NCBI GenBank assembly: GCA_016839785.1
Contig: JAEOTQ010000081.1
Coordinates: forward strand, 1 to 18,414
Direction of reading: 5' to 3'
Length of the DNA stretch: 18,414 nucleotides
Origin: Candidatus Hodarchaeota archaeon
GTDB lineage: Archaea > Asgardarchaeota > Heimdallarchaeia > Hodarchaeales > Hodarchaeaceae
The notes under the pieces were generated by a model. That model did no database searches. It had not been told where the DNA came from and saw nothing but the letters and a program-made list of their open reading frames with translations. The stretch's first letter is position 1; every line of letters starts with the position of its first letter. This document shows positions 2,048 to 18,196 of this stretch, piece after piece. Both the position numbers and the translations under genes were made by a program.

Positions 2048-2300
2048 CTTCCTAGTAAAAAATTGTCTAGGAAAGGAGGGGCAGGATTATTAAGGTTTTT
2101 CATAAGCAATTATCACTGTTTTTCGTTTTCATCTGCAGTATGTATTCCATTTAGTAAAGCACCTGTTTAATAGGAAGAAAAATTACTAAAAAGCCTTCTT
2201 CTCTTTGATAAGGTCTTGAAGCATCACTCTTCATCTTGGTAGAATACCCAAAAAAACATATATACAAGAAGGTGCTGAATGATTCAGTCCCTAAAAGAAG

Positions 2301-2549
2301 GTGTTTGTAGTGAATCGAAAACCGCTCCTAGGGTTGGGATATATGGTAATTCTTTCGTTTTTGATTATCCTGGCGATTTCATTTTCAGAAAACATGCAAA
2401 TTTGGCAGATTACTACTCTCTGGTTCGGTTTTGGAGCATTATACACCCTACTTACCTATAATAGATTTAAACGCCCTCTAACTCTTGTTAAATCCATACA
2501 AATGCTGCAATATCAAGTATTCAAACGTGAGCTTCAGAGAGAGAAATGA
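2301..2549 (+). CDS. Small hypothetical membrane protein (2 TM helices, basic C-terminus)
   Basis: 82 aa ORF with GTG start and two hydrophobic stretches (LLGLGYMVILSFLIILAISF; ITTLWFGFGALYTLLTY). No family recognised. Confidence 0.45.
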   Translation: MFVVNRKPLLGLGYMVILSFLIILAISFSENMQIWQITTLWFGFGALYTLLTYNRFKRPLTLVKSIQMLQYQVFKRELQREK

Positions 2550-2609
2550 GAAACGCTGGATGTATTGGGTGATCATAACTCTCCGTTTTTTTGTGATGTC
2601 TAAGAATAT

Positions 2610-2815
2610 GACTCCTAAGTAAACGAGAGGACTGACCATTTCCACACTAATTTAAGATTAGAGGCCCGTGTGCGATGAGTGTCCGCTTTTAAAGATCCGT
2701 TTCGTGTTTTCTTTTGAAGAAAGCATGCATCGCTTATCGGTTAGTGCGTGGCGGTCGGGCAGTACCCTTCTGGATAACCCGTAGACTAGAGGCGCCCATA
2801 TCCTGTTCCTCTCGT
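2610..2815 (+). repeat. Intergenic structured element, copy 1 (long, variant extension)
   Basis: GACTCCTAAG at 2610, core AACGAGAGGACTGACCATTTCCAC at 2622-2645, hairpin CTAAT-ttaag-ATTAG, then GCCCGTGTGCGATGAGTG. A GC-richer extension ends in TCCTCTCGT (2807-2815), complementary to core 2623-2631. Confidence 0.9.
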
Positions 2816-2954
2816 ACTGAGGACACGTTCCTCTCACGAATCCAACACGTCCGTAGAGAATCGCTAAACCCGAAAAATTCCATGAGAACGAAATGTCAAG
2901 GTCGGTATTCTTAAAAATGAGGGAAACCATGAGAAATAACAATTACAAGTTGGA

Positions 2955-4334
2955 GTGGAAAGACTTCTGATCAAAGAGCGTTCATTTCATTCGAAGTTTT
3001 TAATCTTCTTGGTCCTGACAGGCGTAATAAAGCTCTCGTTTCAGATTTCTACGATTGCTACAATTACTACAAATCAATCAAGTCAATTGTGTTTAGAATC
3101 TCCGGGGCTTGCAAATCAAAAAAAACACCCAAGAATGCACAATCTCAACATCCCACCTAGATCAGGATTGCTCCTTAGTACACGAAGAATAAGCGAAGAT
3201 ATGATCAATTCTCCTATTAGAATTCAGTCTGAAGCTCAGCTTCTTGAGTTAGGATTGCCAGGGAAGGGAACTCAGGAAGACCCATATTTGATATCTGGAC
3301 TGGTAATACAAGAAGATTTCGAACCATATTCGCGCGGTATCGCAATCAATAATACAAAATCATTCATTAAGATTATGAACTGCTCGGTCACAGGTCGGAC
3401 AGCTTTAGAGATAGAAAACGCCGCGAATTTAATCATAGCTAATTGTGAGTTCCAAGCGATGTGGTTTGATTTGAGAATAAGCCAGTGTCATAATCTACAG
3501 ATTTATAATAATACGGGTTATGAATCAGCTTCAATAGGAGATAGTCCAGAAATCTCAATATCTAGGAGTTATGATATTGCGTTCTTTAAGAATACTTGCC
3601 CGAGTATTAAGGTGTACAGGGGTAGTAACATTAACTTAACGGAGAATCTATTTAGGAATGACAATTACATTGCAATTGCGATATCGGGATCAAACAATAC
3701 TCGAATTGTGAATAATTACTGTGTGAATCCAGGAAATACAGGGATAAATCTATATGAAAGCAGTCAGTGTTCCATAGTCAACAATTTTTGCAATAGGTCA
3801 AAGACAGGGATTAGTTTAGAGTTTGGATGCGATACTAACAAAATCAGTAATAATACAATATTAAATTGTAGTCGGGGAATTTCCATCCATGGAGCAGCAG
3901 AAGAAAATATCATTAAAGAGAATATCGTAATTGGAAATTTCTGGGGGATCATTGTTGAACCAGACGGGAGAAATATATTCTATAAGATCTTCCCTGCGAA
4001 CAATCAAGTCTTTAAAAATGTCTTTCAGGACAGTCGCCGTCAAGGAGGATATGATTTAGGGACAAAAAATGTATACAGGTACAATTATTGGGGAGACTGG
4101 GTGACAAATTCCTCGGATGACAATCACGATGGAATTCTAGACGACCCCTATCCATTAGAAGGAGGAAAGAATTATGATCCATACCCCCTGGCTTCGAGAC
4201 AGGCGCTAGAAGATATTACAATCAGTTCGATCACCATTCCACCCTCTACTGGTATAGCCCAAAAAGAGATCATTTTGGGAGGGGCCATCATCATAGGCTT
4301 TTTGGTGGTTCGGATTTACCGAAAAAGAAAGTAG
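2955..4334 (+). CDS. Exported right-handed parallel beta-helix (NosD/CASH, pectin-lyase-like) protein with C-terminal membrane anchor
   Basis: N-terminal hydrophobic segment; GKGTQEDPYLI motif; repeated GIxL..S.NN.I.NN beta-helix units; NYWGDW...DGILDDPY...DPYPL; C-terminal TM followed by RKRK. Confidence 0.85.
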   Translation: MERLLIKERSFHSKFLIFLVLTGVIKLSFQISTIATITTNQSSQLCLESPGLANQKKHPRMHNLNIPPRSGLLLSTRRISEDMINSPIRIQSEAQLLELGLPGKGTQEDPYLISGLVIQEDFEPYSRGIAINNTKSFIKIMNCSVTGRTALEIENAANLIIANCEFQAMWFDLRISQCHNLQIYNNTGYESASIGDSPEISISRSYDIAFFKNTCPSIKVYRGSNINLTENLFRNDNYIAIAISGSNNTRIVNNYCVNPGNTGINLYESSQCSIVNNFCNRSKTGISLEFGCDTNKISNNTILNCSRGISIHGAAEENIIKENIVIGNFWGIIVEPDGRNIFYKIFPANNQVFKNVFQDSRRQGGYDLGTKNVYRYNYWGDWVTNSSDDNHDGILDDPYPLEGGKNYDPYPLASRQALEDITISSITIPPSTGIAQKEIILGGAIIIGFLVVRIYRKRK

Positions 4335-4409
4335 ATTCCCTTCTCAATGAAAAAATTGATCTCATCAATTTTGGAAATTCAAGAAAATGTCTTTCTCCCT
4401 TAAATCAAA

Positions 4410-4535
4410 GTGATCACCAGACATAAGAGCAGAAAGCCCTTGAACACAGTCTATTAGACTCCTAAAGGCTATTATTTCTAAATAAACGAGAGGACTGACC
4501 ATTTCCACAATGTTAAAAGACAATAGTCCCATGGA
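4410..4535 (+). repeat. Intergenic structured element, copy 2
   Basis: AGACATAAGAGCAGAA 4419-4434, GACTCCTAAAGG 4457-4468, core AACGAGAGGACTGACCATTTCCAC 4485-4508 (identical to copy 1 core). Confidence 0.9.
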
Positions 4536-4613
4536 TGTTCGAAATAAAGATATTTATTCTGACATTTCTCGGTCCTTGGAATATTTTGACAAATAAATTT
4601 CTATAAACTCGTT

Positions 4614-6542
4614 TCAATAAACAGAACCGAGGTGCTTTCGATATTGTCTCTGCTGCTCGAAAGAATTGTGAATGAAGTAATACAAAGTAAAAACTAAAAT
4701 ATTTAGATAAAGGAACATACGAGGTTTGATCACAAGAAAAGTTCCATTGAGTAAATTATGGAATATAATAAAAATAAGAGTAATGAAAACAGAATATTTG
4801 TGAATAGTACGCAGGATTTTTCGATAAGATCTAACTTCTAAGACCAGAAGAAGACCAGAAACAGTAAAAATTATCCCAGAAATAAAACCAAGTGTTGCTA
4901 GTAATTGTCCCACATCATAACGGGTTGTAGGAAAAGCAAAAAATACGCTTGGAAAATCAAGAATAGCTGATAAATAGGAGGTCACATCTGAGAACTCCGA
5001 AAGAGATTTCACATGTCCATGCAAAACCATGTAATGAAATACAATAGATATTGCAAGGAGGGAGCCAGAAAAATAATGAAACCATAAAACTTGCTGTCTT
5101 AACCGTCGTTTCAATACAGGGAGGGTTAGATAAAAGCTAGTATAGAACAAAATGAAGGAAAATAATCCAATATAATGGCCAATTTCAGACAAAGGTATGA
5201 AAAGGCCAGTTTCTTGGTCAAAAAACGCAGGGATTAACCCAATCGGAAGAATATAAAAGGGAGTATGTGAGTCAGGAATCTCTAATAACTGAGCAACACC
5301 CCCTTCACTAAACGCACCGATAACAACTGTCCCCAGAGAGTGAGTAGCACATTTAAGATAAATGTTTTGGGCGATAATACCGATAATAGACATCAATCTA
5401 CGATATGAAAGATCAGGATTAGATTGTTGATCCATCCAAGTCATATTAGCAGATATAATTACATTGAGTTGAGCAGATTCAACCCAAGATTGATCTAACG
5501 CTACCTTTCTCAAGGAATTACGTGCATCTCCCTCGTAAAAGTGCATAAGAGAATGATTAGTCAAGGAGTAAGAATATATACCCATAGATAATCCTTTTAC
5601 TTCACCAACAACTAAACGAATATCGATAATGGATACATTTTCTGTGGGAAAATTAACATCTATGCTGTCATTCAAGATATCACTAATAATCGAAAGGGGG
5701 ATTAATCCACTAACATAGTCCCGAGTGGATTTGCGTTTCGCAATAGCTTGCTCTACAGTCATTTCTTCCGTATTTATCACGGATTGAACATCTAACTTCG
5801 AAAATCTCTTTAATTTACCCTGATCTTGACCAACAGGTAATATCATAAGAGGTTGTAATGATATGTGCAGCAATTCTTTAACTCGTGAGGCATTAAAATC
5901 TGAAATTATCCAGGTGTTTAAATTCAAAGAGGACAGTTGGAGAAGAAAATTCTGAAGAGCATGACCTACCTCTAAATGGACATACTGAATTCCTCTTGTG
6001 CCATAACGATCTGTAGTTCGATTAAAATCTACAATAATGTAGAATATAGTAGTAATATTAGAAACAGAATTCTGATCTTCACTCAAAAGAGCAGGTACTA
6101 ATTGAGATTCGTTATTAATAGAAGAATGTAGCTTTAAAACGTGTTCATCGGAATTATAACTATAGTATCCACTACTGAAATGAGAATTTCCATTTTGTTG
6201 TATAAAAATCTTTAATGGATAAGTAGCACCTGCAGAAGGAACGGTTCGAAACCCTGGACCATGAGTGGTACCTTGTAACGCCCACAGGAGCTGAGACAGT
6301 TCTTCAACACTTAGATCATGAGGATACAAATTAGTAGTTACCTTTGATTGATGAATAGCAGTACTTAAGGGAAGATGACCAATTAAATCAGGTTCAGGTA
6401 AAGCTAAATTATCGGATTCGAAGGGAATGAATTCTATGATGATAGCTAATATGGAGAAAACAAGGACAACTGCTGCAACTACTAATTTCAGCTGTGTAAC
6501 GGTTGGAAAGGCGGTTTTCATAATTGATGGCAACTTAAACAA
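4614..6542 (-). CDS. Tandem SagB/ThcOx-type nitroreductase domains fused to a C-terminal ferric-reductase/cytochrome b-like membrane domain
   Basis: LSQLLWALQG, RTVPSAGATYPL, RYGTRGIQYVHLEVGHALQN. The second domain has AIAKRKSTRDY and IAQNIYLKCATHSLGTVVIGAF. C-terminal TM helices carry two H-x13-H pairs. The start codon is uncertain (TTG, or the downstream ATG of MKTAF). Confidence 0.85.
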   Translation of the reverse strand: MFKLPSIMKTAFPTVTQLKLVVAAVVLVFSILAIIIEFIPFESDNLALPEPDLIGHLPLSTAIHQSKVTTNLYPHDLSVEELSQLLWALQGTTHGPGFRTVPSAGATYPLKIFIQQNGNSHFSSGYYSYNSDEHVLKLHSSINNESQLVPALLSEDQNSVSNITTIFYIIVDFNRTTDRYGTRGIQYVHLEVGHALQNFLLQLSSLNLNTWIISDFNASRVKELLHISLQPLMILPVGQDQGKLKRFSKLDVQSVINTEEMTVEQAIAKRKSTRDYVSGLIPLSIISDILNDSIDVNFPTENVSIIDIRLVVGEVKGLSMGIYSYSLTNHSLMHFYEGDARNSLRKVALDQSWVESAQLNVIISANMTWMDQQSNPDLSYRRLMSIIGIIAQNIYLKCATHSLGTVVIGAFSEGGVAQLLEIPDSHTPFYILPIGLIPAFFDQETGLFIPLSEIGHYIGLFSFILFYTSFYLTLPVLKRRLRQQVLWFHYFSGSLLAISIVFHYMVLHGHVKSLSEFSDVTSYLSAILDFPSVFFAFPTTRYDVGQLLATLGFISGIIFTVSGLLLVLEVRSYRKILRTIHKYSVFITLIFIIFHNLLNGTFLVIKPRMFLYLNILVFTLYYFIHNSFEQQRQYRKHLGSVY

Positions 6543-6590
6543 CGATGAGCAAACAAGAAAATAATTGAAGACGAAACTTCTCCTACTTCC

Positions 6591-6740
6591 TCATTCAGAT
6601 TCGTCTTGTTCCTTTTCCTTGGAAGTACGAGGGATTTTTTCTTTCATCTTGCGTTTGGTATCTTCAATCTGCTCTATAACTTCTTTATTAATATCTCCTT
6701 TTTTTGATTTGCGAATAAAAGGAGGTTTTTTCCTAAACAT
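6591..6740 (-). CDS. Small highly charged hypothetical protein (49 aa), not in the supplied ORF track
   Basis: Manual translation: MFRKKPPFIRKSKKGDINKEVIEQIEDTKRKMKEKIPRTSKEKEQDESE*. ATG at 6740, TGA at 6593-6591. Co-directional with, and just upstream of, the nitroreductase gene. Confidence 0.5.
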   Translation of the reverse strand: MFRKKPPFIRKSKKGDINKEVIEQIEDTKRKMKEKIPRTSKEKEQDESE

Positions 6741-6851
6741 TCTCTTTCTCAAGTAAATCATTCTGAATTAATCCTTTTAAAGGTACCTTCCGGATTTATA
6801 TTCCTTGTCGGCGTATTCTTCAGCTTAGATAATTGTCTCGGAAATCCTTTT

Positions 6852-6916
6852 AACGAGAGGCCTGAAAATTTCCACACTAATTGGGAATTAGTAGCCCTTG
6901 TGCGATTAGTGGCAGC
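6852..6916 (+). repeat. Intergenic structured element, copy 3
   Basis: Core AACGAGAGGCCTGAAAATTTCCAC 6852-6875, perfect hairpin ACTAATT-ggg-AATTAGT 6876-6892, then AGCCCTTGTGCGATTAGTGGCAGC. Confidence 0.9.
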
Positions 6917-7135
6917 TATGAATCTATGGTATGTTAAAGGAAAAAGTGAAGAGAATCGATCACCACTGGGATAAATATCGGAAAAAGAGACGATCTCTGT
7001 TTCAGGTTAAATTTTGCCTTCTTAACATTAGATAAAAATGAAATGGTTCTCAAACTTCATAAAGAGAGTGAATGATACTTCAGTAAGAAGAAATTTTGAA
7101 TTCATCAGTTATATATAATCAACTATCCGTAACTT

Positions 7136-7675
7136 ATGAGGGAACAATTGACTGATATTAATCAAAAGAATAAGTATATAATTCGAGTCTCTTTATTATG
7201 CCATCCTGAGGACCTACTGTTCCCGTTAATCCGTGCATTGATTCAAAAATATAAAGGACAAACGACAAATCAAACATTTGACGACTTAACTCTCACTGCT
7301 TCAACAATAAACATCCGGATTGCAAATAGAATTGTAAAAGTGATTTTAGTTCAACCTATTGGTCGTGGATTCTTTAACAAAATGTTCGGTCACCACTTTC
7401 GTTCTAGTGGAGCCATTATTGCATTTTCAAAAGATAACAATGATTCATTTGAAGCATCAAGGGCCTTATACCAGCGTTTCAAGGATATCAATACTGCTGA
7501 TGTTCCAATTGCATTTGTTGGGATCCAAGAGTCACCTGATGACCTTGTTACTGAGGAAGCAATCCAGCTGGAGGTTGGTACCTCTGAATTCTATTATTTC
7601 ATTCAGCATAATGATTTCGAAGTATTAGGGAAAATCCTCCTCTCCTTAGTAACAAAAATCTTCACACCAGCTTAG
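7136..7675 (+). CDS. Small Rab/Arf-like GTPase-fold protein with degenerate nucleotide-binding motifs
   Basis: 179 aa. YIIRVSLL (beta1), VKVILVQPIGRGFF (G3 region), SSGAIIAFSKDNNDSFE and DVPIAFVG align by eye with the Rab pattern GASGAIIVFD..N.ESF / VPIVLVGNK. GxxxxGKS, DxxG and NKxD are absent. Confidence 0.7.
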   Translation: MREQLTDINQKNKYIIRVSLLCHPEDLLFPLIRALIQKYKGQTTNQTFDDLTLTASTINIRIANRIVKVILVQPIGRGFFNKMFGHHFRSSGAIIAFSKDNNDSFEASRALYQRFKDINTADVPIAFVGIQESPDDLVTEEAIQLEVGTSEFYYFIQHNDFEVLGKILLSLVTKIFTPA

Positions 7676-7749
7676 CAGTTGTTATTTACAGCTACATATA
7701 GGTATGGAAATAGAGAATTAGTAAGAATTGAGAAAATTAAAAGAGAGAA

Positions 7750-7895
7750 GGACCACTAGACATAAGACCAGAATTTGCTTTAAAAACAACACACACTCTC
7801 TTTGACTCCTGAAGGCTTTTTTTTCAAAAAAAACGAGAGGACTGACAATTTCCACATTGTTTCCAAAACAATAGCCCGTGGGCGATTCGTGGGAG
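7750..7895 (+). repeat. Intergenic structured element, copy 4
   Basis: AGACATAAGACCAGAA 7758-7773, GACTCCTGAAGG 7804-7815, core 7832-7855, perfect hairpin ATTGTTT-cca-AAACAAT 7856-7872, AGCCCGTGGGCGATTCGTGGGAG. Confidence 0.9.
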
Positions 7896-8167
7896 TAAAT
7901 ATGAATCATCCGATAAATTCTCTAGATAAGCCTATATCACGGCTTGACCAGTACACTTGGACTTTGTAGAAGAATACAGAACATGGCAGTAAATAATGAA
8001 AGTATACTGGAAATCAGTATAATGGGCAATAATATGAAAATAAGTACGCACTTTGGCAGTTCCTATAGATATAACAAGTATTGGTTACAAATCGTATCTA
8101 ACAAAAATCTTATAAGAGAAAAGTTGGCTTAAGAGAATACCAACATGGATTACTGGGACGCCCGAAG

Positions 8168-10354
8168 ATGAAACTATCTTTATGGGGAAGTATCATTTTA
8201 ATTCTCGTCTTTACTCTCTCAAATCGAGAAAATATTGACTTTTTATGCCCAGATATGTTAATGAAGAATCATCACCAGTCAAAAATCACTTTAATTGGTA
8301 AAAAATCAACAGTTGCACCTTTATTCCCATTTTCTAATAATTTTGGCAATTTAACAAGTCATGATGAACCAGTTTACAGTGTAGCCTTTTCTCCAGATGA
8401 AAAAGTTCTTGCTTCTTCAGGGGGAGATGGATCTATTCATTTATGGAATATTTCGGATGGTACAATAATTTCTAAGCTACAAAGCCATTTTTACGATGTA
8501 ATTACAGTTGATTTTTCTTCAAACGGTAAGACACTTGCTTCCGCGGGTCGGTTTGATAAAAAAGTAAATATCTGGGATATACCCTCAAAAAAACTCGTAA
8601 AAACTTGGAATCATACATTTACGGGTCGAAACCTAGCTTTTTCACCCATTAATAACAATATATTAGCTATCCCTAAGAATAATTCAGTTATTATCAAAAA
8701 TATAACAACTGGTGTCATTGTTCAGACCCTGATTGGACATACAGGCCTTGTCACTTCTATAGCTTTTTCACCCGATGGATCATTGATTGCTTCAGGATCT
8801 ACGGACAATACTGTTAAATTATGGAACGTGTCATCTGGAGTAGAGGTTAGAACCTTTTCAGGCCATTCTGATGACATTCACACGTTGGCCATTTCTGCCA
8901 ATGCACAGATAATCGCCACTGGTGGGAAAGATTCAAAAATTATTGTCTGGGATGTAAGCACGGGAGGGGCCCTTCAAACGCTCCTCAGCCACGAAGGAGC
9001 GGTTAATTCACTGGAATTTTATCCTTTGGATCCCGCAATTATAGTTTCGGGAGGAGGAAGTGTTACGTATGATTCACCAATTAAATTTTGGAATATAACC
9101 TCTGGGAAATTAGTGGATTCACTTATAGGGCATCAAGATACCGTTAATACTATTGCATTTTCTCATAATGGAAAATTTCTAGCCTCGGGTAGTAGTGATC
9201 GTGTAATTAAACTTTGGGGAAATTTTCCTTCCCTGTTTATTAATACTTCAATTGATTACTGGCCTACTTCTACTCCTGAAGATCAGAACCTGAATTCATC
9301 ATTATTGGATCAAATCTATTTCCCTGAATTACATAGTCTATTAGTTCTACGAAATGGGAAGCTAGTTCATGAGAAGTATTATACTGGGGATAGATATCAG
9401 TTCACTAGCAAATCTAAACATGCTCTTTTCTCTGTAACTAAAAGCTTCACCTCAACTCTGATTGGGATTGCACTTGACAAGGGATTCATTAGTAATATCA
9501 ATCAAAAAGTCCTTGATTTCTTTCCAGAGAAGACCTTCTGTAATATGAATTCTTTAAAAGAAGCAATCACTATTGAGCATCTCCTTACGATGACAACTGG
9601 ATTAGATTGGTACGATAAAGTCGATTATTTACCTCTAGCTTGTAGTTTAGATATGGTGCAATTTACGCTAGATAGACCTATGAGAAGTGAACCTGGCTCC
9701 GAAGTGAATTATAACAGCGGAGCCTCTCATCTTTTGGCTGTAATCCTACAAAAAGTGTCAGGTCTTCCTATAATGGAATTTGCATTGAAATATCTTTTTG
9801 AACCCTTAGCCATAGAAAAATCTGATATATCGTGGATGGCGAATTCTCTTGGCCAAGTTCTTGGAGGTAATGGGTTATATCTAACCCCTCGTAATATGGC
9901 GAAATTAGGCCAGCTTTATTTGAATAACGGTTCTTGGAACGGGCAAGATATTGTGTCTACTAATTGGATTACTGTTTCTACCAGTAATCATGGAGTTTTT
10001 CGGCATCATCCGTATTCTATAACAGCGCCCATGCAATATGGGTATCATTGGTGGCCCTATGAGAGTACGTGTTTTAATGGATATTATGCACAAGGATCTG
10101 ATGGACAATTCATTTTTGTAATACCTCAATACAATCTAGTAATTGTCTGCACTTCTGGCGTATGGTGGCGTGATGCATACTTTTTTGCGGATAAAATTTT
10201 CAAAGCGATTATTCCTGACTCAGATCAAGTTTCAGTCTCCACAACTGATGACATAAAAAAATCGACGGATATCACTCAATCCACAAATTGGCTATCTATA
10301 CTCCCGATTTCCCTATCTTTGATTCTGCTCGTACTATTCCGAAAACGTCCATAG
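8168..10354 (+). CDS. Exported WD40-repeat / beta-lactamase-family (class C-like) serine hydrolase fusion with C-terminal TM anchor
   Basis: Signal-like N-terminus; about 7 WD40 repeats (GHTGLVTSIAFSPDGSLIASGSTDNTVKLWN); SxxK (SVTK), HLLTMTTG, YNS, LTPRNMAKLGQLYL, YGYHWW; Ser/Thr linker, TM, FRKRP. Confidence 0.9.
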   Translation: MKLSLWGSIILILVFTLSNRENIDFLCPDMLMKNHHQSKITLIGKKSTVAPLFPFSNNFGNLTSHDEPVYSVAFSPDEKVLASSGGDGSIHLWNISDGTIISKLQSHFYDVITVDFSSNGKTLASAGRFDKKVNIWDIPSKKLVKTWNHTFTGRNLAFSPINNNILAIPKNNSVIIKNITTGVIVQTLIGHTGLVTSIAFSPDGSLIASGSTDNTVKLWNVSSGVEVRTFSGHSDDIHTLAISANAQIIATGGKDSKIIVWDVSTGGALQTLLSHEGAVNSLEFYPLDPAIIVSGGGSVTYDSPIKFWNITSGKLVDSLIGHQDTVNTIAFSHNGKFLASGSSDRVIKLWGNFPSLFINTSIDYWPTSTPEDQNLNSSLLDQIYFPELHSLLVLRNGKLVHEKYYTGDRYQFTSKSKHALFSVTKSFTSTLIGIALDKGFISNINQKVLDFFPEKTFCNMNSLKEAITIEHLLTMTTGLDWYDKVDYLPLACSLDMVQFTLDRPMRSEPGSEVNYNSGASHLLAVILQKVSGLPIMEFALKYLFEPLAIEKSDISWMANSLGQVLGGNGLYLTPRNMAKLGQLYLNNGSWNGQDIVSTNWITVSTSNHGVFRHHPYSITAPMQYGYHWWPYESTCFNGYYAQGSDGQFIFVIPQYNLVIVCTSGVWWRDAYFFADKIFKAIIPDSDQVSVSTTDDIKKSTDITQSTNWLSILPISLSLILLVLFRKRP

Positions 10355-10403
10355 TTTTTCCTAGCTAAGCATTTTTTCTGGAATGTATACTTTGAATTTT
10401 GAT

Positions 10404-10673
10404 ACTCTATTAGACTCCTTAAGACAATTTTTAATAGTAAACGAGAGGACTGACCCTTTCCACACTATTTTCCAATTAGTAGCCCGTGTGCGATTAGTGG
10501 CAGCGTATTAGAAAACACTAAACATATCGGAAAACCCGCCACGCGTATTTTTTATAGGAAAAACTGCTCTAGCAACGGGATTTTTCTCTAGAAAGATCCC
10601 AGCACTCGTTTACCATCTCATGGTTATCGGTGCCAATCCCCATGGCATATCGCTGATGGCAAAATGGATTCAT
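10404..10673 (+). repeat. Intergenic structured element, copy 5 (long form, candidate ncRNA)
   Basis: GACTCCTTAAG at 10413, core 10440-10463, AGCCCGTGTGCGATTAGTGGCAGC, and a ~170 nt extension shared with copy 7, including a 26-nt exact match (10596-10621 = 13465-13490). Confidence 0.9.
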
Positions 10674-10693
10674 CCTTTCAAGGTTCGTTACGT

Positions 10694-11734
10694 TCATTTA
10701 ATTAGATTTGCTGTTTTTTGAATAGCTCGTTCTGCATCCTGGGTTATCCTATCGATTATTGAGGCGACTCCTTTGATACTATCGATAAGCCCAATACTTT
10801 GCCCAAGGAGGACAGCCCCATCATGGATATTACCTTGATAAGCTAAATCATAAGCTTGAGCTGCTTTAGCTAACTCTTCCGTACTCATTACTACTTCCTG
10901 AGCTAATTTTTCTTCTTTTTTAGTTACACGATTATGTCCTAGACTATACTTATTCTTCCAAAGGCGAATCGGCCCTAAAATCCCTGTCACAAGCGTTGTA
11001 TCTGGGGCTCTAGCAGGGGGAACGACGTTTTTATAAACCTCATGGAATTCGCATTCTTTAGAAGCGATAAATCTGGACCCCATGGCGATTGCTCCTGCAC
11101 CGAGGGATAAGGCGGAAGCTAAACCTTCCCCTGTAGCAAATCCGCCACAGGCTATCCGAGGTATAAGGGGAAATCGTTGCTGGACTTGCTGGAGAAGGAC
11201 AAGGGTACTTACATTTTCATAAGACTGGTGGCCCCCTCCTTCACTCCCTGTGACTACTAATCCATCAACCCCAGCATCCACACATTTCTCTGCTAACCAG
11301 AGGGCAGGTGCAACGTGAAAATGGACAATCTGCGAGACCTCTTTTAGCTCTTGGAACGTTTTCGATTGGGGAAGTACTTTAGCGGACCCTGCACTAGTTA
11401 AAACGTATCGACACTGTTCTTTAATTTTAGGATTATCCAGAATGAATTCTGGAATTTCATCACACAAAGTCTTGGCATATGGCTCTAATCGAGAAGTTCT
11501 TATATTAAATCCAAAAGGTTTGTCGGTATGCTCAACGACATATTGCATATTTTGTTTCATTTCTTCAATCGGATCTTTATCCTTGCTTAAGAGGCCAATT
11601 TGAGATAAGACACCTAATCCTCCCGCTTCAGAGACAGCTACAGTTAAATGTGTAGTATGGAAGGGAGCCATGGGCGCAGCAATTATAGGATACTTAATTC
11701 CTAACATTTTTGTGATCTGTGTTTCGAATGGCAT
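10694..11734 (-). CDS. Nitronate monooxygenase / FabK-like FMN-dependent oxidoreductase
   Basis: LGIKYPIIAAPMA, AVSEAGGLGVL, TDKPFGFNI, GSEGGGH, IACGG...LSLGAGAIAMGSRFIASKE, GQSIGLI. Confidence 0.92.
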   Translation of the reverse strand: MPFETQITKMLGIKYPIIAAPMAPFHTTHLTVAVSEAGGLGVLSQIGLLSKDKDPIEEMKQNMQYVVEHTDKPFGFNIRTSRLEPYAKTLCDEIPEFILDNPKIKEQCRYVLTSAGSAKVLPQSKTFQELKEVSQIVHFHVAPALWLAEKCVDAGVDGLVVTGSEGGGHQSYENVSTLVLLQQVQQRFPLIPRIACGGFATGEGLASALSLGAGAIAMGSRFIASKECEFHEVYKNVVPPARAPDTTLVTGILGPIRLWKNKYSLGHNRVTKKEEKLAQEVVMSTEELAKAAQAYDLAYQGNIHDGAVLLGQSIGLIDSIKGVASIIDRITQDAERAIQKTANLIK

Positions 11735-11870
11735 TACTCTTCAATGAAATAAGGAATTTTTCAAAAGGTTTCTGAAATGAAGAATATGAAGAATATGAAA
11801 AACTTGATTATTGGATTTGTACCTAACATATAGGATCAAAACAACAGGCAAATAAAAGAACTAGAAGGAG

Positions 11871-11993
11871 GTGACCTTCAGATATAAGACCAGAAACCAC
11901 TTCAAACATACTTTTACGACTCCTTAAGGCTTTTTCCTAGAAATACGTGAGGACTGAAAATTTCCACCTTTCTAGTAAGAAATATCCAGTGGG
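11871..11993 (+). repeat. Intergenic structured element, copy 6
   Basis: AGATATAAGACCAGAA 11880-11895, GACTCCTTAAGG 11918-11929, core TACGTGAGGACTGAAAATTTCCAC 11944-11967, hairpin TTTCT-agta-AGAAA. Confidence 0.85.
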
Positions 11994-12144
11994 TGAGGAG
12001 AACCAAAACGCTTCTAAGAATGCTTAAGGTTAATATGAGTACGAAATGAAACGAACTTTTCATAACGAAATGTACATTCACCGAATTTCTGTAATCTGAA
12101 AATATTTAAACGACTTTTGAAAGAGAGACAACTTGTGATTTTAT

Positions 12145-12495
12145 ATGGTAACTCAACAACAAGAAAGAATACTAATTAGTACAACCTATGAGATTCCTGG
12201 ATATAAGATTGATCAGCATTTTGGATTAGCATTTGGCGCGACGGTAAGAAGTCGTGGAATGGGAGGCGATTGTTTGGCGGGTTGCCAATCATCTTGTGGA
12301 GGCGAAGTCACTGCATTTACCGAAATGGCACTTGAGGCAAGAAATCAGGCGATTAATCGCATGTTTGAGGATGCAGCTCGGATGGGGGCGAATGCGATTA
12401 TTGGATTAAAGTTCGACAGTGATCAAATCGGTCAAGGTGGCAATACCGCAACAATTGCTTATGGAACCGCGGTTAGAGTATCACCAGTCCGATAA
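12145..12495 (+). CDS. YbjQ/UPF0145 family protein
   Basis: STTYEIPGYKI, GLAFGATVRSR, GGEV..FTEM..EARNQAINRM...A..MGANAIIGLKFD, AYGTAV. Confidence 0.92.
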   Translation: MVTQQQERILISTTYEIPGYKIDQHFGLAFGATVRSRGMGGDCLAGCQSSCGGEVTAFTEMALEARNQAINRMFEDAARMGANAIIGLKFDSDQIGQGGNTATIAYGTAVRVSPVR

Positions 12496-12497
12496 CG

Positions 12498-13112
12498 GTG
12501 AATACGATAAATTTATCCATCACAATTAAGTTGTTACTTAAACGTTGGCAATTATCTTGGCGTTTTAGGTTCGCTCACCATCCAATATGCGCGAATTACC
12601 AGACTCATATCTGGAAAATCGGAGGCCTCTATCTTTGCCAGGGGTGCAGCCTGGTTTACATTTCTTTCTTAATAACACTATTGTTGCTAATCAATTTTCA
12701 AATGACTTTTCTCTCAATCCAATATTTATCCCTAGGAATAGGTCTTTTAGTACCGATTCTATTAATTGAAAAATATGATATCAATCAAAGAATTACTAAA
12801 CGATTAGCAAGAATAGCAACGGGTATTGGATTAGGAGTTTCTTTTTCGGCATTTATGCTTCATCCAGACATCATTATCAAGTTTGTAGGACTCATCATCA
12901 CGATAGGGGGATTTTATACATTCAAAGCTATTAGACGTACAAAGCAGAAAGTGGATAAGTGTCAAACATGTGCCGACCACCAAAGTCATAAAATATGCTA
13001 TGGGTTACTTTTGGAATCCGAGGCAATGAGAAAGTATTCAGAATATGCCTCTGATTTATTACAAGCCGACTTGAAAGCTGCTTTCGCAAAAAAAATCCAA
13101 TCAGACGCGTAA
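12498..13112 (+). CDS. Cys/His-rich multi-pass membrane protein (DUF2085-like), probably co-transcribed with the YbjQ-family gene
   Basis: Starts 2 nt after the YbjQ stop. HHPIC..YQTH...LCQGC, then about 4 TM helices, then CQTC..H....C. Confidence 0.7.
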   Translation: MNTINLSITIKLLLKRWQLSWRFRFAHHPICANYQTHIWKIGGLYLCQGCSLVYISFLITLLLLINFQMTFLSIQYLSLGIGLLVPILLIEKYDINQRITKRLARIATGIGLGVSFSAFMLHPDIIIKFVGLIITIGGFYTFKAIRRTKQKVDKCQTCADHQSHKICYGLLLESEAMRKYSEYASDLLQADLKAAFAKKIQSDA

Positions 13113-13266
13113 TTTGTGTGTAGAATTTACCTTACTGAAGGTAAAAAGAGAGGAGAAAGTGAGGATTATGCCTCAAGAGCTTCTAACCTCAACATCTATT
13201 GGAAAGAAATTAGCAGATGGGTGAGGAATAAAGATGAGAACTCTTAGTATATACGTCCCTATGAGC

Positions 13267-13543
13267 GTGACTGTCAGAGACAAAGCCAGAACTGTAATCA
13301 ACACACTTATTACGACTCCTTGAGGTTTTTTCCTAGAAATACGAGATGACTGAAAATTTCTACACTATTTTAAGAATAGTAGCCCGTGTGCGATTAGTGG
13401 GAGCCAGCTAAACATGTCGAAAAACCTCCACGCGTACACCACTGCTCTATCAAAGGGATGTTCTATCCCAGCACTCGTTTACCATCTCATAGTTATCGTC
13501 GCCAATCCCCATGGCTTTTCGCTGATGACAAAATGGATTCATT
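13267..13543 (+). repeat. Intergenic structured element, copy 7 (most complete form, about 277 nt, candidate ncRNA)
   Basis: Contains all blocks: AGAGACAAAGCCAGAA 13276-13291, GACTCCTTGAGG 13314-13325, core 13340-13363, hairpin ACTATT-ttaag-AATAGT, AGCCCGTGTGCGATTAGTGGGAG, and the extension to AAAATGGATTCAT. Confidence 0.9.
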
Positions 13544-13641
13544 TTCAGAGTTGTGAAAGGAATGAAAACTTCAAATATCTCTTTGTACTCTAAGACTCAC
13601 TTAGAATGAAATCAATATAAGATCTTGGGAGACAAATTGGT

Positions 13642-16131
13642 ATGACAAATTTAAATTTGAAAAAAAGCATGATTATCATATTAATTATGAATTTGGTTAT
13701 TAGTGGAAGTTTTATTCAGTTATTCGATCTCGATTATGATGTTAATCAAATATCAAGGAATAAAAATGATGGTAAGAAAAGAAAAAACGGATTATCTAGC
13801 AATACAAGATATGAAAATGAAATAAATCTAGCTATCCAAACATCAGGAATTATAACAGAGAATTATGACCAATTTCGTGAAGGAATATCAACCAATTTGA
13901 CAATAAGTGAAGAAAATGGAGTCCTACTAGAGAAAAGCATTGAGGAGTTAACATGGAAAGAAATCACCCTCCCAGAAAATAAACCAAGTGAAAGAATGGG
14001 CCATAAAATGGTCTATAATTCAAAATCCGACAAATACATACTGTTTGGAGGAACTGGTACGGAGGGTCTCAAAAACGATACATGGATCTATGATCCCCAA
14101 ACAAATATATGGACAGAAAAAGCTCCCTCAGTCGCACCAGCGGCAAGATATTATCACGATATGGTTTATGACCCAAAACAAGATAAGGTTATCTTATTTG
14201 GAGGGTATCTTGGGGGATCTCAACTGGGTGACACATGGGCATATGATCTAATTACAAATACATGGAGCGAAATGAATCCTTCAGTAAAACCAAGTCCAAG
14301 ATATTTCAATCTAATGATATATGATTCCTTTTCAGAAATAGTGTTATTATTTGGAGGCCGTGCAGGTGCGAGTAATTATAGAGATACTTGGATTTATGAC
14401 CTTGGATCAGATAATTGGACCAATATGAATCCTCCTACTTCCCCTCCTACAAGAATTGCAGGAGCGATGGCTTATAATTCATTATCCAATAAAGTAATAT
14501 TGTTTGGGGGGCATGTTGGTGGAAGTTCATTTCTTACTGATACTTGGATATATGAAGTAGCCGCAAATAATTGGACTCAAATGTTTCCTGACACTTCACC
14601 AGGGGCAAGACGGCTAGCAGGAGTGTGTTTTGATACGAGTATTGCTAAAACGGTAATATTTGGGGGATATGGGGCGTCGAGGTTTGGAGATACATGGACA
14701 TATGATCTTGTAACAAACACTTGGAATCAATTGGACCCATCAATCACGCCTCCAGCAAGAGATTCTCATACAATGGTTTATGATTCTAACTCTGAAAATA
14801 TACTTGTGTTTGGTGGACTCAGCGGTTCCTACTTGAATGATGCATGGATTTATCCTGAGGAGAAAATATGTAGAACTGGTATACTTCAATCTAGAATTAT
14901 TCCTTTAGGTAATATCTATAATATTACTGGAAATCTTATCTGGGATCCGTTAGTACAACCTCTAGGTACATCATTGAAACTCCAAATTGGTTTTTCCAAT
15001 ACTACACACAATGAGGATTTTGTATATACCAATTTAACGACAACGGAGATGATATTTACTCGTTTTGCCCAATATCTATGTTATAATGTAACTTTCGAAT
15101 CAGATATTGATCAACTTATTTCCCCAAATCTCAAGACTCTAACAATTGAATATCGATTAGATAATCCACAACCAGAAATTGAAATTATTAATCCCCCAAA
15201 TAATAGTATTGTTGAGGGGCTAGTAAGTATTACAGTACTCGCTAGTTCTCCCAATGGGATCACAAAAGTGGCCTTTTTTCTTGGTGGAACTTTACTGGTA
15301 TATGATTATACTGCCCCTTTTAAGTTCACATGGGATACCAGAGGGGTTAATAATGGAAATGTCTCACTTAGCGTGATTGCAACAACCGTTCTTGGAAGAG
15401 AGAATATTGATTCAATTCAACTTACAGTGGATAATCCTATTACTCCAGAATTAATTGAAACTACGTCAAGTCCTCCCCAAAATCTTTTAGCTATTGTTGA
15501 TGATTATTTCATTATATTAGATTGGACTCCTCCTAGTAATAATGGCGGATCCGCGATCTTATATTACAAAATCTATCGTGGAACCATTAGTGGGGAATAT
15601 TCGGAGCATGGTATATCCTCAAAAACAAACTATACTGATACGACAGTGAGTAGTGACACGAGGTATTATTATGTGGTAACTGCGGTTAACGATATCGGAG
15701 AAAGTTATTTTTCAGAGGAAACAAGTAGTATTCCTACAGGTGTAATAGAACCCACTCATAAGGCTCCGAGTATCCCTAGATTCCTTTCAGTTAACGCTGA
15801 GGATCAAATTGTGACACTAACATGGACTCCTCCTAGTGATGACGGCGGAGTTGATATTATCAAGTACCATGTCTATCGTGGTACTTCCAGTGGCTCGTAT
15901 ATGCTGATTGGAGTCGTAATAGGGGCACTTCAGCGGTATAATGATAGTTTAATTATCCGCGGGGATACCTATTATTATGTAGTAACTGCAGTAAATTCAT
16001 TTGGAGAAAGTCAATTCTCCAATGAGGTGAGTATCACAATACCTGGTGCAGCGGCTGGCACCTTTCCGGGACTGTTTACAGTCCTTTTGTCATTAATCGT
16101 AATTATAGGTATTACTCGAAAGCGTAAGTGA
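13642..16131 (+). CDS. Cell-surface Kelch-repeat / Ig-like / 2x fibronectin type III protein with C-terminal membrane anchor
   Basis: Six Kelch repeats (P..R..H.MVYD....KVILFGG.....DTW.YD..TN.W); Ig-like IINPPNNSIVEG...APFKFTWDT; two FN3 domains (LxWTPPS..GG..I..YxxYRG...YYYVVTAVN..GES); FPGL, TM, RKRK. Confidence 0.92.
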   Translation: MTNLNLKKSMIIILIMNLVISGSFIQLFDLDYDVNQISRNKNDGKKRKNGLSSNTRYENEINLAIQTSGIITENYDQFREGISTNLTISEENGVLLEKSIEELTWKEITLPENKPSERMGHKMVYNSKSDKYILFGGTGTEGLKNDTWIYDPQTNIWTEKAPSVAPAARYYHDMVYDPKQDKVILFGGYLGGSQLGDTWAYDLITNTWSEMNPSVKPSPRYFNLMIYDSFSEIVLLFGGRAGASNYRDTWIYDLGSDNWTNMNPPTSPPTRIAGAMAYNSLSNKVILFGGHVGGSSFLTDTWIYEVAANNWTQMFPDTSPGARRLAGVCFDTSIAKTVIFGGYGASRFGDTWTYDLVTNTWNQLDPSITPPARDSHTMVYDSNSENILVFGGLSGSYLNDAWIYPEEKICRTGILQSRIIPLGNIYNITGNLIWDPLVQPLGTSLKLQIGFSNTTHNEDFVYTNLTTTEMIFTRFAQYLCYNVTFESDIDQLISPNLKTLTIEYRLDNPQPEIEIINPPNNSIVEGLVSITVLASSPNGITKVAFFLGGTLLVYDYTAPFKFTWDTRGVNNGNVSLSVIATTVLGRENIDSIQLTVDNPITPELIETTSSPPQNLLAIVDDYFIILDWTPPSNNGGSAILYYKIYRGTISGEYSEHGISSKTNYTDTTVSSDTRYYYVVTAVNDIGESYFSEETSSIPTGVIEPTHKAPSIPRFLSVNAEDQIVTLTWTPPSDDGGVDIIKYHVYRGTSSGSYMLIGVVIGALQRYNDSLIIRGDTYYYVVTAVNSFGESQFSNEVSITIPGAAAGTFPGLFTVLLSLIVIIGITRKRK

Positions 16132-16170
16132 TTCCTTTTTCCATGAGTGAAATATAAAGGACCTTGCTGG

Positions 16171-16246
16171 GCTTTCTAAAAAGAACGAGAGGACTGACAC
16201 TTTCCACTTTGTTTGAAGACAATAGCCCGTGTGCGATGAGTGGGAG
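16171..16246 (+). repeat. Intergenic structured element, copy 8
   Basis: Core AACGAGAGGACTGACACTTTCCAC 16184-16207, hairpin TTGT...ACAA, AGCCCGTGTGCGATGAGTGGGAG. Confidence 0.9.
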
Positions 16247-16315
16247 TGTAATGATCAAATGTAAGCTATCTTTTTCTTTCAAGAGGTCAAAATTGTAATT
16301 ACTTTTCTCTTCCTC

Positions 16316-18196
16316 TCAAAGGGTTTTTTCGAAAAAATCACAGATTTTCATTATTTTTACTCTTCTATTCTTTTTTCGATAAATACCATGACCCTCGTCA
16401 TCAAATGGCAGCTTTTCATAATCTATATTGTGTTTTATCAGTTCTTCTTCTACAACTTTAACGTTTTCAGGAGTGACATTAGGATCGTTCATGCCCTGAA
16501 CAATTAACACGTTTCCAGTAATGTTTTGGATATAGTTAATAGGTGAACCCTCTTTATATCTCTCAGGGACTGCTTGAGGGGAACCACCCATCATTTCCTC
16601 ACTATAAGGACGGATATCAGGTCGGGTAGTTTCATAATCCACAATGAGGTCGGTCATACCACACACAGGAGCACTGGCAGAAAAAATGTCTGGAAATTTA
16701 GTAATTCCATACCAGGCCGAGAAACCACCATAACTAGTCCCTGTAATGCCGATTTTTGCGTCAGATGGCAAATATCTATTTATAAGCGCTTTTGCACCTG
16801 CAGCAATATCTTCTTGTTCATTGCTACCCCAACCCCCTACTTTAATTAGCTCTCGAAACTTGATCCCATACCCTGTTGAACCACGATAATTAGGATCCAA
16901 AACAACGAAACCTCGTGAAACAAAATATTGGATTTCCGTATTTAAAGCATCCTCAGAATGGAATGTTGGACCTCCGTGAACATAGACTATACATTTATTA
17001 TTAGGATCAATGGGAGTATATACCCAGCCATGAATAGGTTTATTATCGAAAGAAATCCATTCAAATTCTTTTGCTTGAGTTAGATGAGACTGTTGAACTT
17101 TCAATTTCTCAAAATTATCAAATAGAAAGTCAAAGTCGTTAAGTGTTAAATTATTGATATCCCTAGTAGGGAAAGAAACCAAAGTTTCTGGCTGGATAGA
17201 GCTATAGTAAGAACCGATCCACGTTCTAGAATCGATTGGGAAAGTTGGTAGGAGTGTTCCCGTTTCAAACCTAGGAAAGGGAACTAGTGTCCTATCATTC
17301 AAATTATAAAAGTAAACTGATTGCTTTGCTTTGATAATTTCGATAAGAACTAGAATATTAGGATCAAACCGACTCACATACGCCTTGGAGAAATCATATT
17401 TACGATTTGGAGTTTCAGGGGACTCCAAAATCCAGAAAACTTCTTCCTTGTCTACAGAAAAAATACCAGCCAGACGCTTATCTAGTCTCTTGTCATTAAA
17501 GGAATCAGTTACAAAAACAATATTTCGAGAATCTGGAAGCCAACTAGCCTCGACTTTTGCTTTTTTACCAAAATTAAGGATTTCTCTGTCATCCTCACCA
17601 TCGACATTTATAAGCCAATACTGCCTGCCTGCAGGATCGATATCACTTCTAGAATAGAGTAATCTGGATCCTTCTAAGTTTAATTGAGAATAATTCCATG
17701 CAGGTTTTAGAACGGAGGTTAAATGATGGATTTCATTTTTATTTTCGACATTTTGAGCATATAGATGAAAAATCTCGGTTTCTTTCTTGGTTTGCGGATC
17801 AAAATTAGCAAAATAATACATTAAATCGCCCTTTGGGGCTATTTCTGAACCTCTGAGATAAAAATCTGGAGTTTCCTTGGTTAAAGCGTGCATTTTCTTC
17901 GGTTCATCTAGAAAAACCCGAAATAACGCGATTCTTTCATTTCGCGCTTTATCTTCAGCAACTATTACAGATTTCGAGTCAGGCCACCATTTTGTGAAAT
18001 AAGTAAGCTCTTCGGTTTCAGTAAGAACATCTAACTTCCTATCTTCATCCTTATAGTCAATTAAAAACACATCTACATTAGGATGGAGACCAAAAATCGT
18101 TAAAGCGATGTTTTGATTAGCTATTGCCCTTTCAGCAGAAAATATTTGAGAGATATTTAACAATTCATCAATAAATGTTTCAGAGCCAAGATCCAT
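16316..18196 (-). CDS. S9 family peptidase (acylaminoacyl/prolyl oligopeptidase): beta-propeller plus alpha/beta hydrolase
   Basis: VHGGP, PNYRGSTGYG, nucleophile GTSYGG, QGMNDPNV (Asp), DEGHG (His). Confidence 0.93.
   Translation of the reverse strand: MDLGSETFIDELLNISQIFSAERAIANQNIALTIFGLHPNVDVFLIDYKDEDRKLDVLTETEELTYFTKWWPDSKSVIVAEDKARNERIALFRVFLDEPKKMHALTKETPDFYLRGSEIAPKGDLMYYFANFDPQTKKETEIFHLYAQNVENKNEIHHLTSVLKPAWNYSQLNLEGSRLLYSRSDIDPAGRQYWLINVDGEDDREILNFGKKAKVEASWLPDSRNIVFVTDSFNDKRLDKRLAGIFSVDKEEVFWILESPETPNRKYDFSKAYVSRFDPNILVLIEIIKAKQSVYFYNLNDRTLVPFPRFETGTLLPTFPIDSRTWIGSYYSSIQPETLVSFPTRDINNLTLNDFDFLFDNFEKLKVQQSHLTQAKEFEWISFDNKPIHGWVYTPIDPNNKCIVYVHGGPTFHSEDALNTEIQYFVSRGFVVLDPNYRGSTGYGIKFRELIKVGGWGSNEQEDIAAGAKALINRYLPSDAKIGITGTSYGGFSAWYGITKFPDIFSASAPVCGMTDLIVDYETTRPDIRPYSEEMMGGSPQAVPERYKEGSPINYIQNITGNVLIVQGMNDPNVTPENVKVVEEELIKHNIDYEKLPFDDEGHGIYRKKNRRVKIMKICDFFEKTL

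Follow-up and report, generated by a model that had tools for sequence, protein, structure and literature searches.

Detached 23S rRNA gene ends alternate with cargo genes in arrays of Hodarchaeales genomes

Some mobile elements use the ribosomal RNA genes as their target. The eukaryotic elements R1/R2 and Pokey insert specifically into rDNA, where they disrupt the gene, and carry genes for enzymes of their own. In archaeal chromosomes, partial tRNA genes reportedly border captured elements, an observation ascribed to She et al. 2001. Tandem accretion at the 3′ ends of tRNA, tmRNA or protein genes, including integrase-less remnants (CIMEs), is described in the relevant parts of PMC5704250. Integrons, among them clusters of attC sites without an integrase, are reported as enriched in Asgard archaea in the portion of a recent study that deals with them (Ghaly et al. 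2022, PMC9668308). The Aloposons (PMC8813620), as far as their description goes, are giant-gene elements at tRNA sites and are unrelated to what follows.

The window analysed here is a stretch of 18,414 nt that forms one entire contig (C33) of a metagenome-assembled genome (MAG; here G000) of 4.04 Mb and 84.5% completeness. On sequence grounds, its segment 10404–10673 is the last ∼210 nt of 23S rRNA (ES39 through H101) with ∼60 nt of 3′ flank, on the minus strand and detached from the gene. As an RNA the sequence is already known, namely LSU rRNA. It has the same sequence and fold as LSU rRNA domain VI with the expansion segment ES39 (RF02540; PMC7594248, in the part concerning ES39), from ES39/H98 to H101, and the longest copies add H94–H97 and the sarcin–ricin loop. 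It differs from LSU rRNA in that only detached 3′ fragments without domains I–V are found here, in many diverged copies.

These copies lie in arrays, alternating with cargo genes. With tandem accretion as presented in PMC5704250, the arrays share direct repeats of the target-gene 3′ end, an intact target at one array end and units without integrase. They differ from that account in their 23S target, in a repeat of ∼0.5 kb rather than tens of nt, in units of 1–3 kb with one or two genes, in numbering at least 25 units per genome, and in having no integrase in or beside them. Contig C8 of a congener (G008:C8) shows direct repeats of the gene end and, at one side of the array, the intact gene; the polarity of G004:C196, G002:C50 and G019:C28 is consistent with the same arrangement. 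With sedentary integrons and attC clusters, as far as PMC9668308 characterizes them, the arrays share long runs of co-oriented repeats, one per small cassette, and a cargo of accessory and toxin–antitoxin genes. In contrast to integrons, the repeat is derived from rRNA and shows on inspection no attC-like imperfect palindrome, no IntI was found, and an rRNA gene end stands in place of attI. On the enzyme the array fails as an accretion element and as an integron alike. R1/R2 and Pokey likewise use the LSU rRNA gene as a safe, conserved insertion target; here, however, duplication of its end leaves the target gene whole, and ordinary cellular genes make up the inserts. We found no published account of 23S-end repeat arrays in the literature, supplements aside.

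In the window all eight intergenic regions between ten large ORFs hold a unit copy, one each (Table 1). The eight members of this repeat family all lie on the plus strand when read as a repeat; the rRNA sense is the minus strand. A scan of the window for tRNA and tmRNA genes found none.

Table 1. The cassette array and its unit copies in the window (nt; strand of copies is that of the rRNA sense)
Feature	Coordinates	Strand	Content	Basis
Cassette array	173..18196	none	Ten large cargo ORFs on both strands: transglutaminase-like, beta-helix, nitroreductase, 179-aa ORF, WD40/beta-lactamase fusion, NMO, YbjQ + 204-aa ORF, Kelch/Ig/fn3, S9 peptidase	ORF list, Pfam, intergenic sequences
Copy 1	2613..2851	-	Flank and last ∼20 nt of 23S (2613-2681), internal deletion, then early domain VI (2686-2851) with sarcin-ricin loop sequence at 2805-2818	
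Copy 2	4405..4573	-	Box A (4412-4434), B, C, hairpin, large internal deletion	nhmmer, box A scan
Copy 3	6852..6915	-	Box C, hairpin and last ∼20 nt of 23S only	nhmmer E 6e-16
Copy 4	7733..7895	-	Box A (7751-7773) to last ∼20 nt of 23S	nhmmer E 5e-31, box A scan
Copy 5	10403..10698	-	5′-truncated 23S 3′ end and flank, unit positions 84-379; ∼10463-10698 ES39/H98 to H101; ∼10403-10462 flank; box B 10407-10419, box C 10441-10453	nhmmer, full-unit profile, E 2.5e-79
Copy 6	11865..12000	-	Box A (11873-11895) through decayed 23S end	nhmmer E 2e-15, box A scan
Copy 7	13265..13545	-	5′-truncated 23S end and flank, unit positions 37-357, short-loop type	nhmmer E 1.1e-71
Copy 8	16170..16250	-	Box C to last ∼20 nt of 23S	nhmmer E 3.6e-16

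The assignment to 23S rRNA draws on longer paralogues of the segment and on real 23S genes. The longer paralogues match the Rfam model LSU_rRNA_archaea (RF02540; model length 2987, gathering score 50 bits) at positions 2721–2973 in cmscan, with 131–222 bits and E-values of 8e-38 to 2.5e-51. They include G000:C106 from the same genome (131 bits, E 8.3e-38, on the strand opposite to the repeat ‘plus’), G002:C65 (169.5 and 139.3 bits), G014:C70 (162.3 bits), G011:C12 (222.4 bits) and G008:C8 (161 bits). An initial annotation of the window, made from its letters, had proposed an Rfam comparison as a check, and the outcome is divided: the longer paralogues match, whereas the whole window matches no Rfam family at E ≤ 1, and copy 5 alone (10380–10720, 341 nt; E ≤ 10) has no LSU match, its single hit being a chance one to HIV_FE at E 2.2. 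Copy 5 spans ∼110 positions of the RF02540 model plus ES39, which is absent from the model. Since copy 5 has no LSU match of its own, its identity rests on the homologous paralogues and the real genes.

Relative to the archaeal model, the alignment of G000:C106 contains an insertion of ∼64 nt that holds the conserved ...GAAUCCAUUUUGCCAUCAGCG...GGUAAACGAGUGCUG... of copy 5, and the insertion site coincides with the Asgard expansion segment ES39. Enlargement of ES39 in Lokiarchaeota and Heimdallarchaeota is described in the section of Penev et al. (2020, PMC7594248) devoted to it. Aligning long copies with their flanks, from G000 and four congeners, showed that in many copies the unit continues for ∼170 nt beyond the ‘long form’ of the initial annotation; the reverse complement of this continuation reads as the sarcin–ricin loop region and H97.

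Two contiguous 23S genes carry the same sequence in place. On the metagenome contig L107 (model 2584–2987, 390 bits), the gene can be followed from domain V through this ES39 and the 3′ end as far as a conserved flank motif, box C. In the congener contig G008:C8 (model 2545–2987, 328 bits), whose gene breaks off where the contig does, ES39 and the 3′ end are again present, with boxes C, B and A behind them; the flank of the L107 gene has box C and lacks boxes B and A. The copy-5 sequence is collinear with both genes. By blastn to L107, copy 5 is 70.5% identical over 244 nt and copy 7 81.2% over 207 nt, with other copies reaching 88.6%. The Rfam alignment of L107 places the 23S 3′ end near window position 10463, and this divides copy 5 into the rRNA and flank parts of Table 1. 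The proposal that 10404–10673 is an unannotated RNA (ribozyme, guide/bridge or retro-element RNA) is contradicted by the LSU matches of the paralogues together with these two genes.

A search of the own genome, G004, G019 and G010 with the Rfam LSU model gave no match among the candidates scored; the real 23S gene is not assembled in the own genome, and the assembly holds no domain II–V sequence. Contig L109, which came from the second metagenome scan, belongs to a GC-rich unrelated archaeon and was rejected. As a separate observation, the real 23S gene of G008 has, relative to L107, an insertion of ∼320 nt in domain V, between ...GGGAACGUGA and GCUGGGUUUAG... (L118:14311–14628; G008:C8 ∼54.3–54.6 kb), which has the look of an rRNA intron without an ORF.

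The ancestral unit measures ∼520 nt and runs, in rRNA sense, from the domain V/VI border through the sarcin–ricin loop, ES39 and the 23S 3′ end to boxes C, B and A and an oligo-T run. The ∼270-nt form that had been taken for the whole element is itself truncated. A profile was built from six full-length copies. The start of the unit lies no more than about 20 nt from the domain V/VI border (H93/H94). Compared with the real G008 gene, full units stop ∼4–20 nt past ‘CCAACAC’, near the H93/H94 border; of the 127 right ends that no contig end cuts off, 13 reach profile positions 515–520, none going beyond, and in three full units inspected closely likeness to the real gene is lost within about 20 nt of that point. 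Most other right ends stop at 140–220, such copies keeping the flank with the final ∼20 nt of 23S. Read in plus orientation, the sequence ahead of box A is rich in A (51%, background 32%; 39 sites), and the resulting oligo-T run behind box A in rRNA sense is plausibly a terminator. Box B contains the palindrome CCTTAAGG.

Copies are truncated at many different points. Copies 5 and 7 lack the first ∼140–160 nt of the unit, and the short copies have lost more by internal or terminal deletion; their earlier description as truncated derivatives holds, with junction sequences pointing to an origin by deletion. Copy 1 gives two nhmmer matches, at unit positions 114–182 and 355–520, its deletion spanning profile 182 to 355; it is 92% identical to G000:C106 and 87.5% identical over 136 nt to L107, and rRNA contigs pile up on it (depth 13–68 against about 1–10 in most other bins). 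At copy 2 a few nt of the unit survive immediately ahead of the nitroreductase cassette, a place at which the long form is found in G019 and G004, and the junction orthologous to copy 3 is retained in G002:C79 and G004:C196. In no copy are domains I–VI contiguous, as in a functional LSU rRNA gene. Because they are detached 3′ fragments without domains I–V, in dozens of diverged and partly deleted copies, we regard them as pseudogene pieces and not as rRNA genes. One more stranded piece of domain VI opens a contig of the same genome (G000:C63:1–178); it is 94% identical over 176 nt to the real G008 gene and has the same border.

In rRNA sense, about 10 nt of box C in copy 5 are the complement of sarcin–ricin loop sequence in copy 1 (ACGAGAGGA/UCCUCUCGU), and the counterparts in other copies show the same. 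The complementarity is weaker, and not kept, in the real G008 gene, so it is probably due to chance.

Secondary structure was assessed in an alignment of 18 sequences (long copies and real genes) in rRNA, or minus-strand, sense. RNAalifold predicts seven helices with 43 pairs across the copy-5 region. Standard pairing at these positions is 95.7% (91.7 ± 0.5% in shuffled alignments), and 12 pairs are changed on both sides (5.1 ± 1.5 shuffled), a number that none of 500 shuffles reached; sliding the 3′ partners by 1–3 columns lowers pairing to 30–46%. A multi-helix structured-RNA sequence with covariation, as the initial annotation had it, is thus supported, and the helices, loop indels and compensatory changes that it saw at 10404–10673 are real. 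The elements GGGAT-14 nt-ATCCC versus GGGAT-5 nt-ATCCC, GCCAATCCCCATGGC in both copies and TTTACCATC...GATGRCAAA all lie where it had placed them, and the extension common to copies 5 and 7 (10596–10673 and 13465–13542) is 92% identical between them. Its failure to see a conserved ORF is borne out by indel lengths (9, about 10 and 11 nt) that do not keep to multiples of three. Its helices had seemed to point to both strands; many G–U pairs on the minus strand, which would be A–C on the plus, settle the minus strand as the RNA sense. The complementarity between GTAAACGAG (10437–10445) and CTCGTTTAC (10605–10613) in copy 5 is genuine, but the large domain that it was thought to close is not: the pairing is complete in 2 of the 12 copies that hold both segments, does not covary and lies outside the consensus fold.

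Indels are located at helix tips, and the long variants are themselves small hairpins. A/T-rich hairpin-shaped insertions (TTTCTT..AAGAAA type) occur at four tips (alignment columns 131–143, 247–255, 280–290 and 326–335); the copies combine them in mosaic fashion, and neither real gene (L107, G008) has any. Behind box C, a hairpin stays paired although its stems are very different. We infer that the helices and compensatory changes were inherited from working rRNA and were not selected in the copies.

The profile gave 129 matches, spread over 28 contigs from six Hodarchaeales genomes of one genus (G000, 27; G002, 25; G004, 39; G013, 3; G014, 10; G019, 25). Two or more copies lie on 25 of these contigs, none of which mixes strands. 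Copies are spaced at a median of 1819 nt, about one unit per gene or operon, and the array in G004:C196 extends over at least 34 kb (79.4–113.6 kb). When seven candidates per genome were scored, which caps the counts, two or more matches to a full unit were found in 10 of 22 genomes of the genus, and more than one in none of 61 genomes from 17 other genera. In G010:C1 and G016:C1 (L076, L077), which are listed as one-contig genomes but are scaffolds joined by runs of 100 N, there are only ∼60-nt unit remnants (23S terminus and box C) and no rRNA. A search with the ES39 pattern returned, among genome contigs, only array contigs of the same MAGs and, among metagenome and viral contigs, nothing; the box-C pattern found nothing in viral contigs.

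The position of an array relative to the real gene is visible in one congener. In G008:C8 the 3′ part of the real 23S gene lies at the contig end, with seven co-oriented copies downstream that range from weak or partial to full, two being full-length; the first displaced copy is within ∼0.9 kb of the real gene. On the long contigs G004:C196, G002:C50 and G019:C28, the array borders ordinary chromosome at its box-A end and extends past the end of the contig in the rRNA direction (3 of 3), and the chromosomal flanks of the three are partly collinear. The YbjQ operon is part of this unit-free ‘flank’ in G002 and G004 and lies between copies 6 and 7 in the window.

Cargo blocks recur in congeners at 72–96% identity beside different neighbours, with homology starting or stopping at or inside units; the window's own cargo recurs in G002, G004 and G019 at 72–93% identity, again with other neighbours. 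Unit–cargo junctions recur at 90–95% identity in independently assembled genomes. We annotated 189 ORFs from the arrays of five genomes (G000, G002, G004, G014 and G019) with Pfam at E-value thresholds of 1e-3 to 1e-6. Small GTPases of the Ras/Roc/Arf/Gtr1 type make up 25 of the 189 (∼1/8) in and beside arrays, some fused to LRR domains, and toxin–antitoxin-type cargo (PIN, ParE/RHH, Fic, nucleotidyltransferase) is frequent. Unusual cargo proteins of the window are a 728-aa protein with a WD40 propeller fused to a beta-lactamase-family domain (8168–10354, +) and an 829-aa protein with a Kelch propeller and Ig-like and fibronectin-III domains (13642–16131, +). A 3524-aa ORF forms a single cassette in the array of G004:C196 (L068:6807–17378, -), its only Pfam match being the bacterial TSP3 repeat.

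No tyrosine or serine recombinase, integrase, DDE transposase, Cas1 or homing endonuclease was found by Pfam among the 189 array ORFs. A nuclease, recombinase or reverse transcriptase ORF beside the copies, which the initial annotation had suggested looking for, does not accompany them; the sole mobile-element protein is one 417-aa TnpB (OrfB_IS605 and Cas12f1-like TNB domains; L102:918–2168, -, in G019:C121), between two ordinary copies. The integron-integrase model TIGR02249 found nothing above 265 bits in G000, G002, G004, G014, G016 and G019, the best score in G000 being 87.5 bits. On the 12.8-kb contig G002:C77, a 773-aa ORF with a tyrosine-recombinase part (L072:6991–9312, +) scores 186 + 49 bits against this model, below the 265-bit cut-off, and no unit copy or box lies near it on that contig.

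Box A stands alone at some junctions. The flank beyond a solitary box A is not common to G000:C16 and G004:C196, and the cargo upstream of the solitary box in G004 is also found inside arrays elsewhere, so such a box marks a decayed junction, not the border of an array. In Logan contigs from four DNA runs of two studies, error-free contigs cross the junctions (e.g. 10166–10619 and 10679–12165). Several joints in these contigs link one copy to another, with short sides of 20–37 nt; they fit arrangements in relatives (e.g. NMO followed by a G004-type copy), and we do not take them to show excision or circles. Neither a circular or free cassette nor an attP-bearing element or donor element was found.

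The units resemble the gene of their own species. The two displaced full units of G008 are 91.9% and 90.0% identical to the gene in that genome, including its species-specific ES39, against 56–81% pairwise to units of other genomes and 79–87% to those of the related G013. One of the two has two changes in the sarcin–ricin loop and the other has changes in the stem of the loop. This likeness to the own gene, together with changes at rRNA sites, indicates that units derive from the resident gene, or are converted by it, and then decay. Over 113 cores, conservation is at least 90% in boxes B and C and at the 23S terminus, while spacers are at 30–60%, near saturation. Cores beside orthologous cargo have identities of 0.61–0.84, compared with a median of 0.674 and a 95th percentile of 0.786 for random pairs. 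Because the boxes are so conserved and orthologous cargo does not go with more similar cores, gene conversion or selection on the boxes is needed, not plain decay.

The stranded 23S ends are probably relics of repeated insertions that duplicated the end of the rRNA gene, by a mechanism that we reconstruct as follows. DNA carrying cargo and a copy of the gene end would recombine with the resident end by a Campbell-type single crossover, through homologous recombination or an enzyme encoded elsewhere. The 23S gene would stay whole, and a truncated end would be left behind the cargo. Repeated insertion, and recombination between units, would build the array and excise, reinsert and reshuffle cassettes, while the displaced ends, being dead, would decay. 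An account of this kind explains a common orientation, fixed unit limits, an intact gene at one array end, species-specific units and no recombinase. It leaves the first acquisition of a unit by a new cargo gene unexplained. Further points against it are that copy 5 has no LSU match of its own, that the mosaic tip insertions are in neither real gene, and that L107 lacks boxes B and A. More tentatively, Hodarchaeales of this genus might run a sedentary, integron-like cassette platform in which the ∼0.5-kb copy of the 23S 3′ end is the junction or recombination module, the gene end offering a harmless landing site and homology for swaps between species.

The main rival to the crossover account is a site-specific recombinase encoded elsewhere and acting in trans on the boxes. 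The core (boxes A, B and C with the hairpin) would then be the selected recombination site and the remaining rRNA a passenger, as in an integron. One co-oriented unit per promoterless-looking cassette, cargo on both strands, toxin–antitoxin genes and shuffling between species would suit it, as would conserved boxes between saturated spacers, a hairpin that pairs with very different stems, solitary boxes A and the palindrome in box B. We nevertheless consider it rather doubtful. The six genomes searched have no integron integrase above the cut-off, and the array ORFs no recombinase; the boxes are also present, in species-specific form, in the flank of the real G008 gene, so that descent from the real gene, or conversion by it, explains their conservation. 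Nor, by inspection, do the short copies have an inverted-repeat partner like that of attC, an R''/L''...L'/R' imperfect palindrome of 57–141 nt: a repeat search of the window gave no inverted pair of at least 30 nt, and the sole long-range complement was that of GTAAACGAG and CTCGTTTAC, which is confined to long copies and does not covary. Mobile cassettes could also be dispensed with altogether, if a single old duplication of the rRNA end had multiplied in a plastic region, through unequal crossing-over and segmental duplication, and the genes had arrived separately. Conservation of the chromosomal flank between G004, G002 and G019 points to a sedentary locus of this kind, the YbjQ operon is bounded by units in the window and free of them in G002 and G004, and no mobility gene was found; passive repeats are unlikely, however, given the near one-to-one ratio of units and genes over 129 copies, the strict co-orientation, the interspecies homology blocks bounded by units and the same cargo beside different neighbours.

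Two further readings are far less probable. If the segment were a structured ncRNA of ∼270 nt with a function of its own (ribozyme, guide/bridge or retro-element RNA), it could claim the covarying helices and the TnpB gene in one G019 array contig; this reading is already contradicted by the same sequence being contiguous with domains V–VI in real 23S genes, by the many truncation points, by mutations at universally conserved rRNA positions in displaced copies and by copies without a partner protein gene, and is very improbable. TnpB/IscB omega-RNA, bridge RNA, retron and group II intron RNA were each rejected, with no Rfam family in the window (E ≤ 1), no adjacent cognate protein gene and the single TnpB lying between ordinary copies. 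An assembly artefact, in which conserved rRNA pieces glued unrelated metagenome contigs together, has to be considered as the genomes are metagenome-assembled and rRNA often breaks or mis-joins such assemblies. The copies, however, differ from one another (median core identity 0.67) and carry flank that is not rRNA, the same junctions appear at 90–95% in independent assemblies, and error-free contigs from public runs cross them, so that an artefact is the least probable reading of all.

For annotation, the case means that stranded rRNA ends can be missed by Rfam when it is run at normal settings, and can pass for novel structured RNAs, even in their covariation. The candidate new RNA dissolves into a fragment of ribosomal RNA; the array structure remains less ordinary, with the end of a 23S gene followed by a long array of accessory genes that are shuffled between species without a visible recombinase. 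Asgard archaea are the archaeal lineage closest to eukaryotes. If the units are a recombination substrate, the arrays would amount to a gene-capture system built on an rRNA gene; they would also explain the fragmentation of the array-bearing genomes around the rRNA locus. If true, it would offer a concrete route for the gain and loss of small GTPases, repeat proteins and toxin–antitoxin pairs in Asgard genomes.
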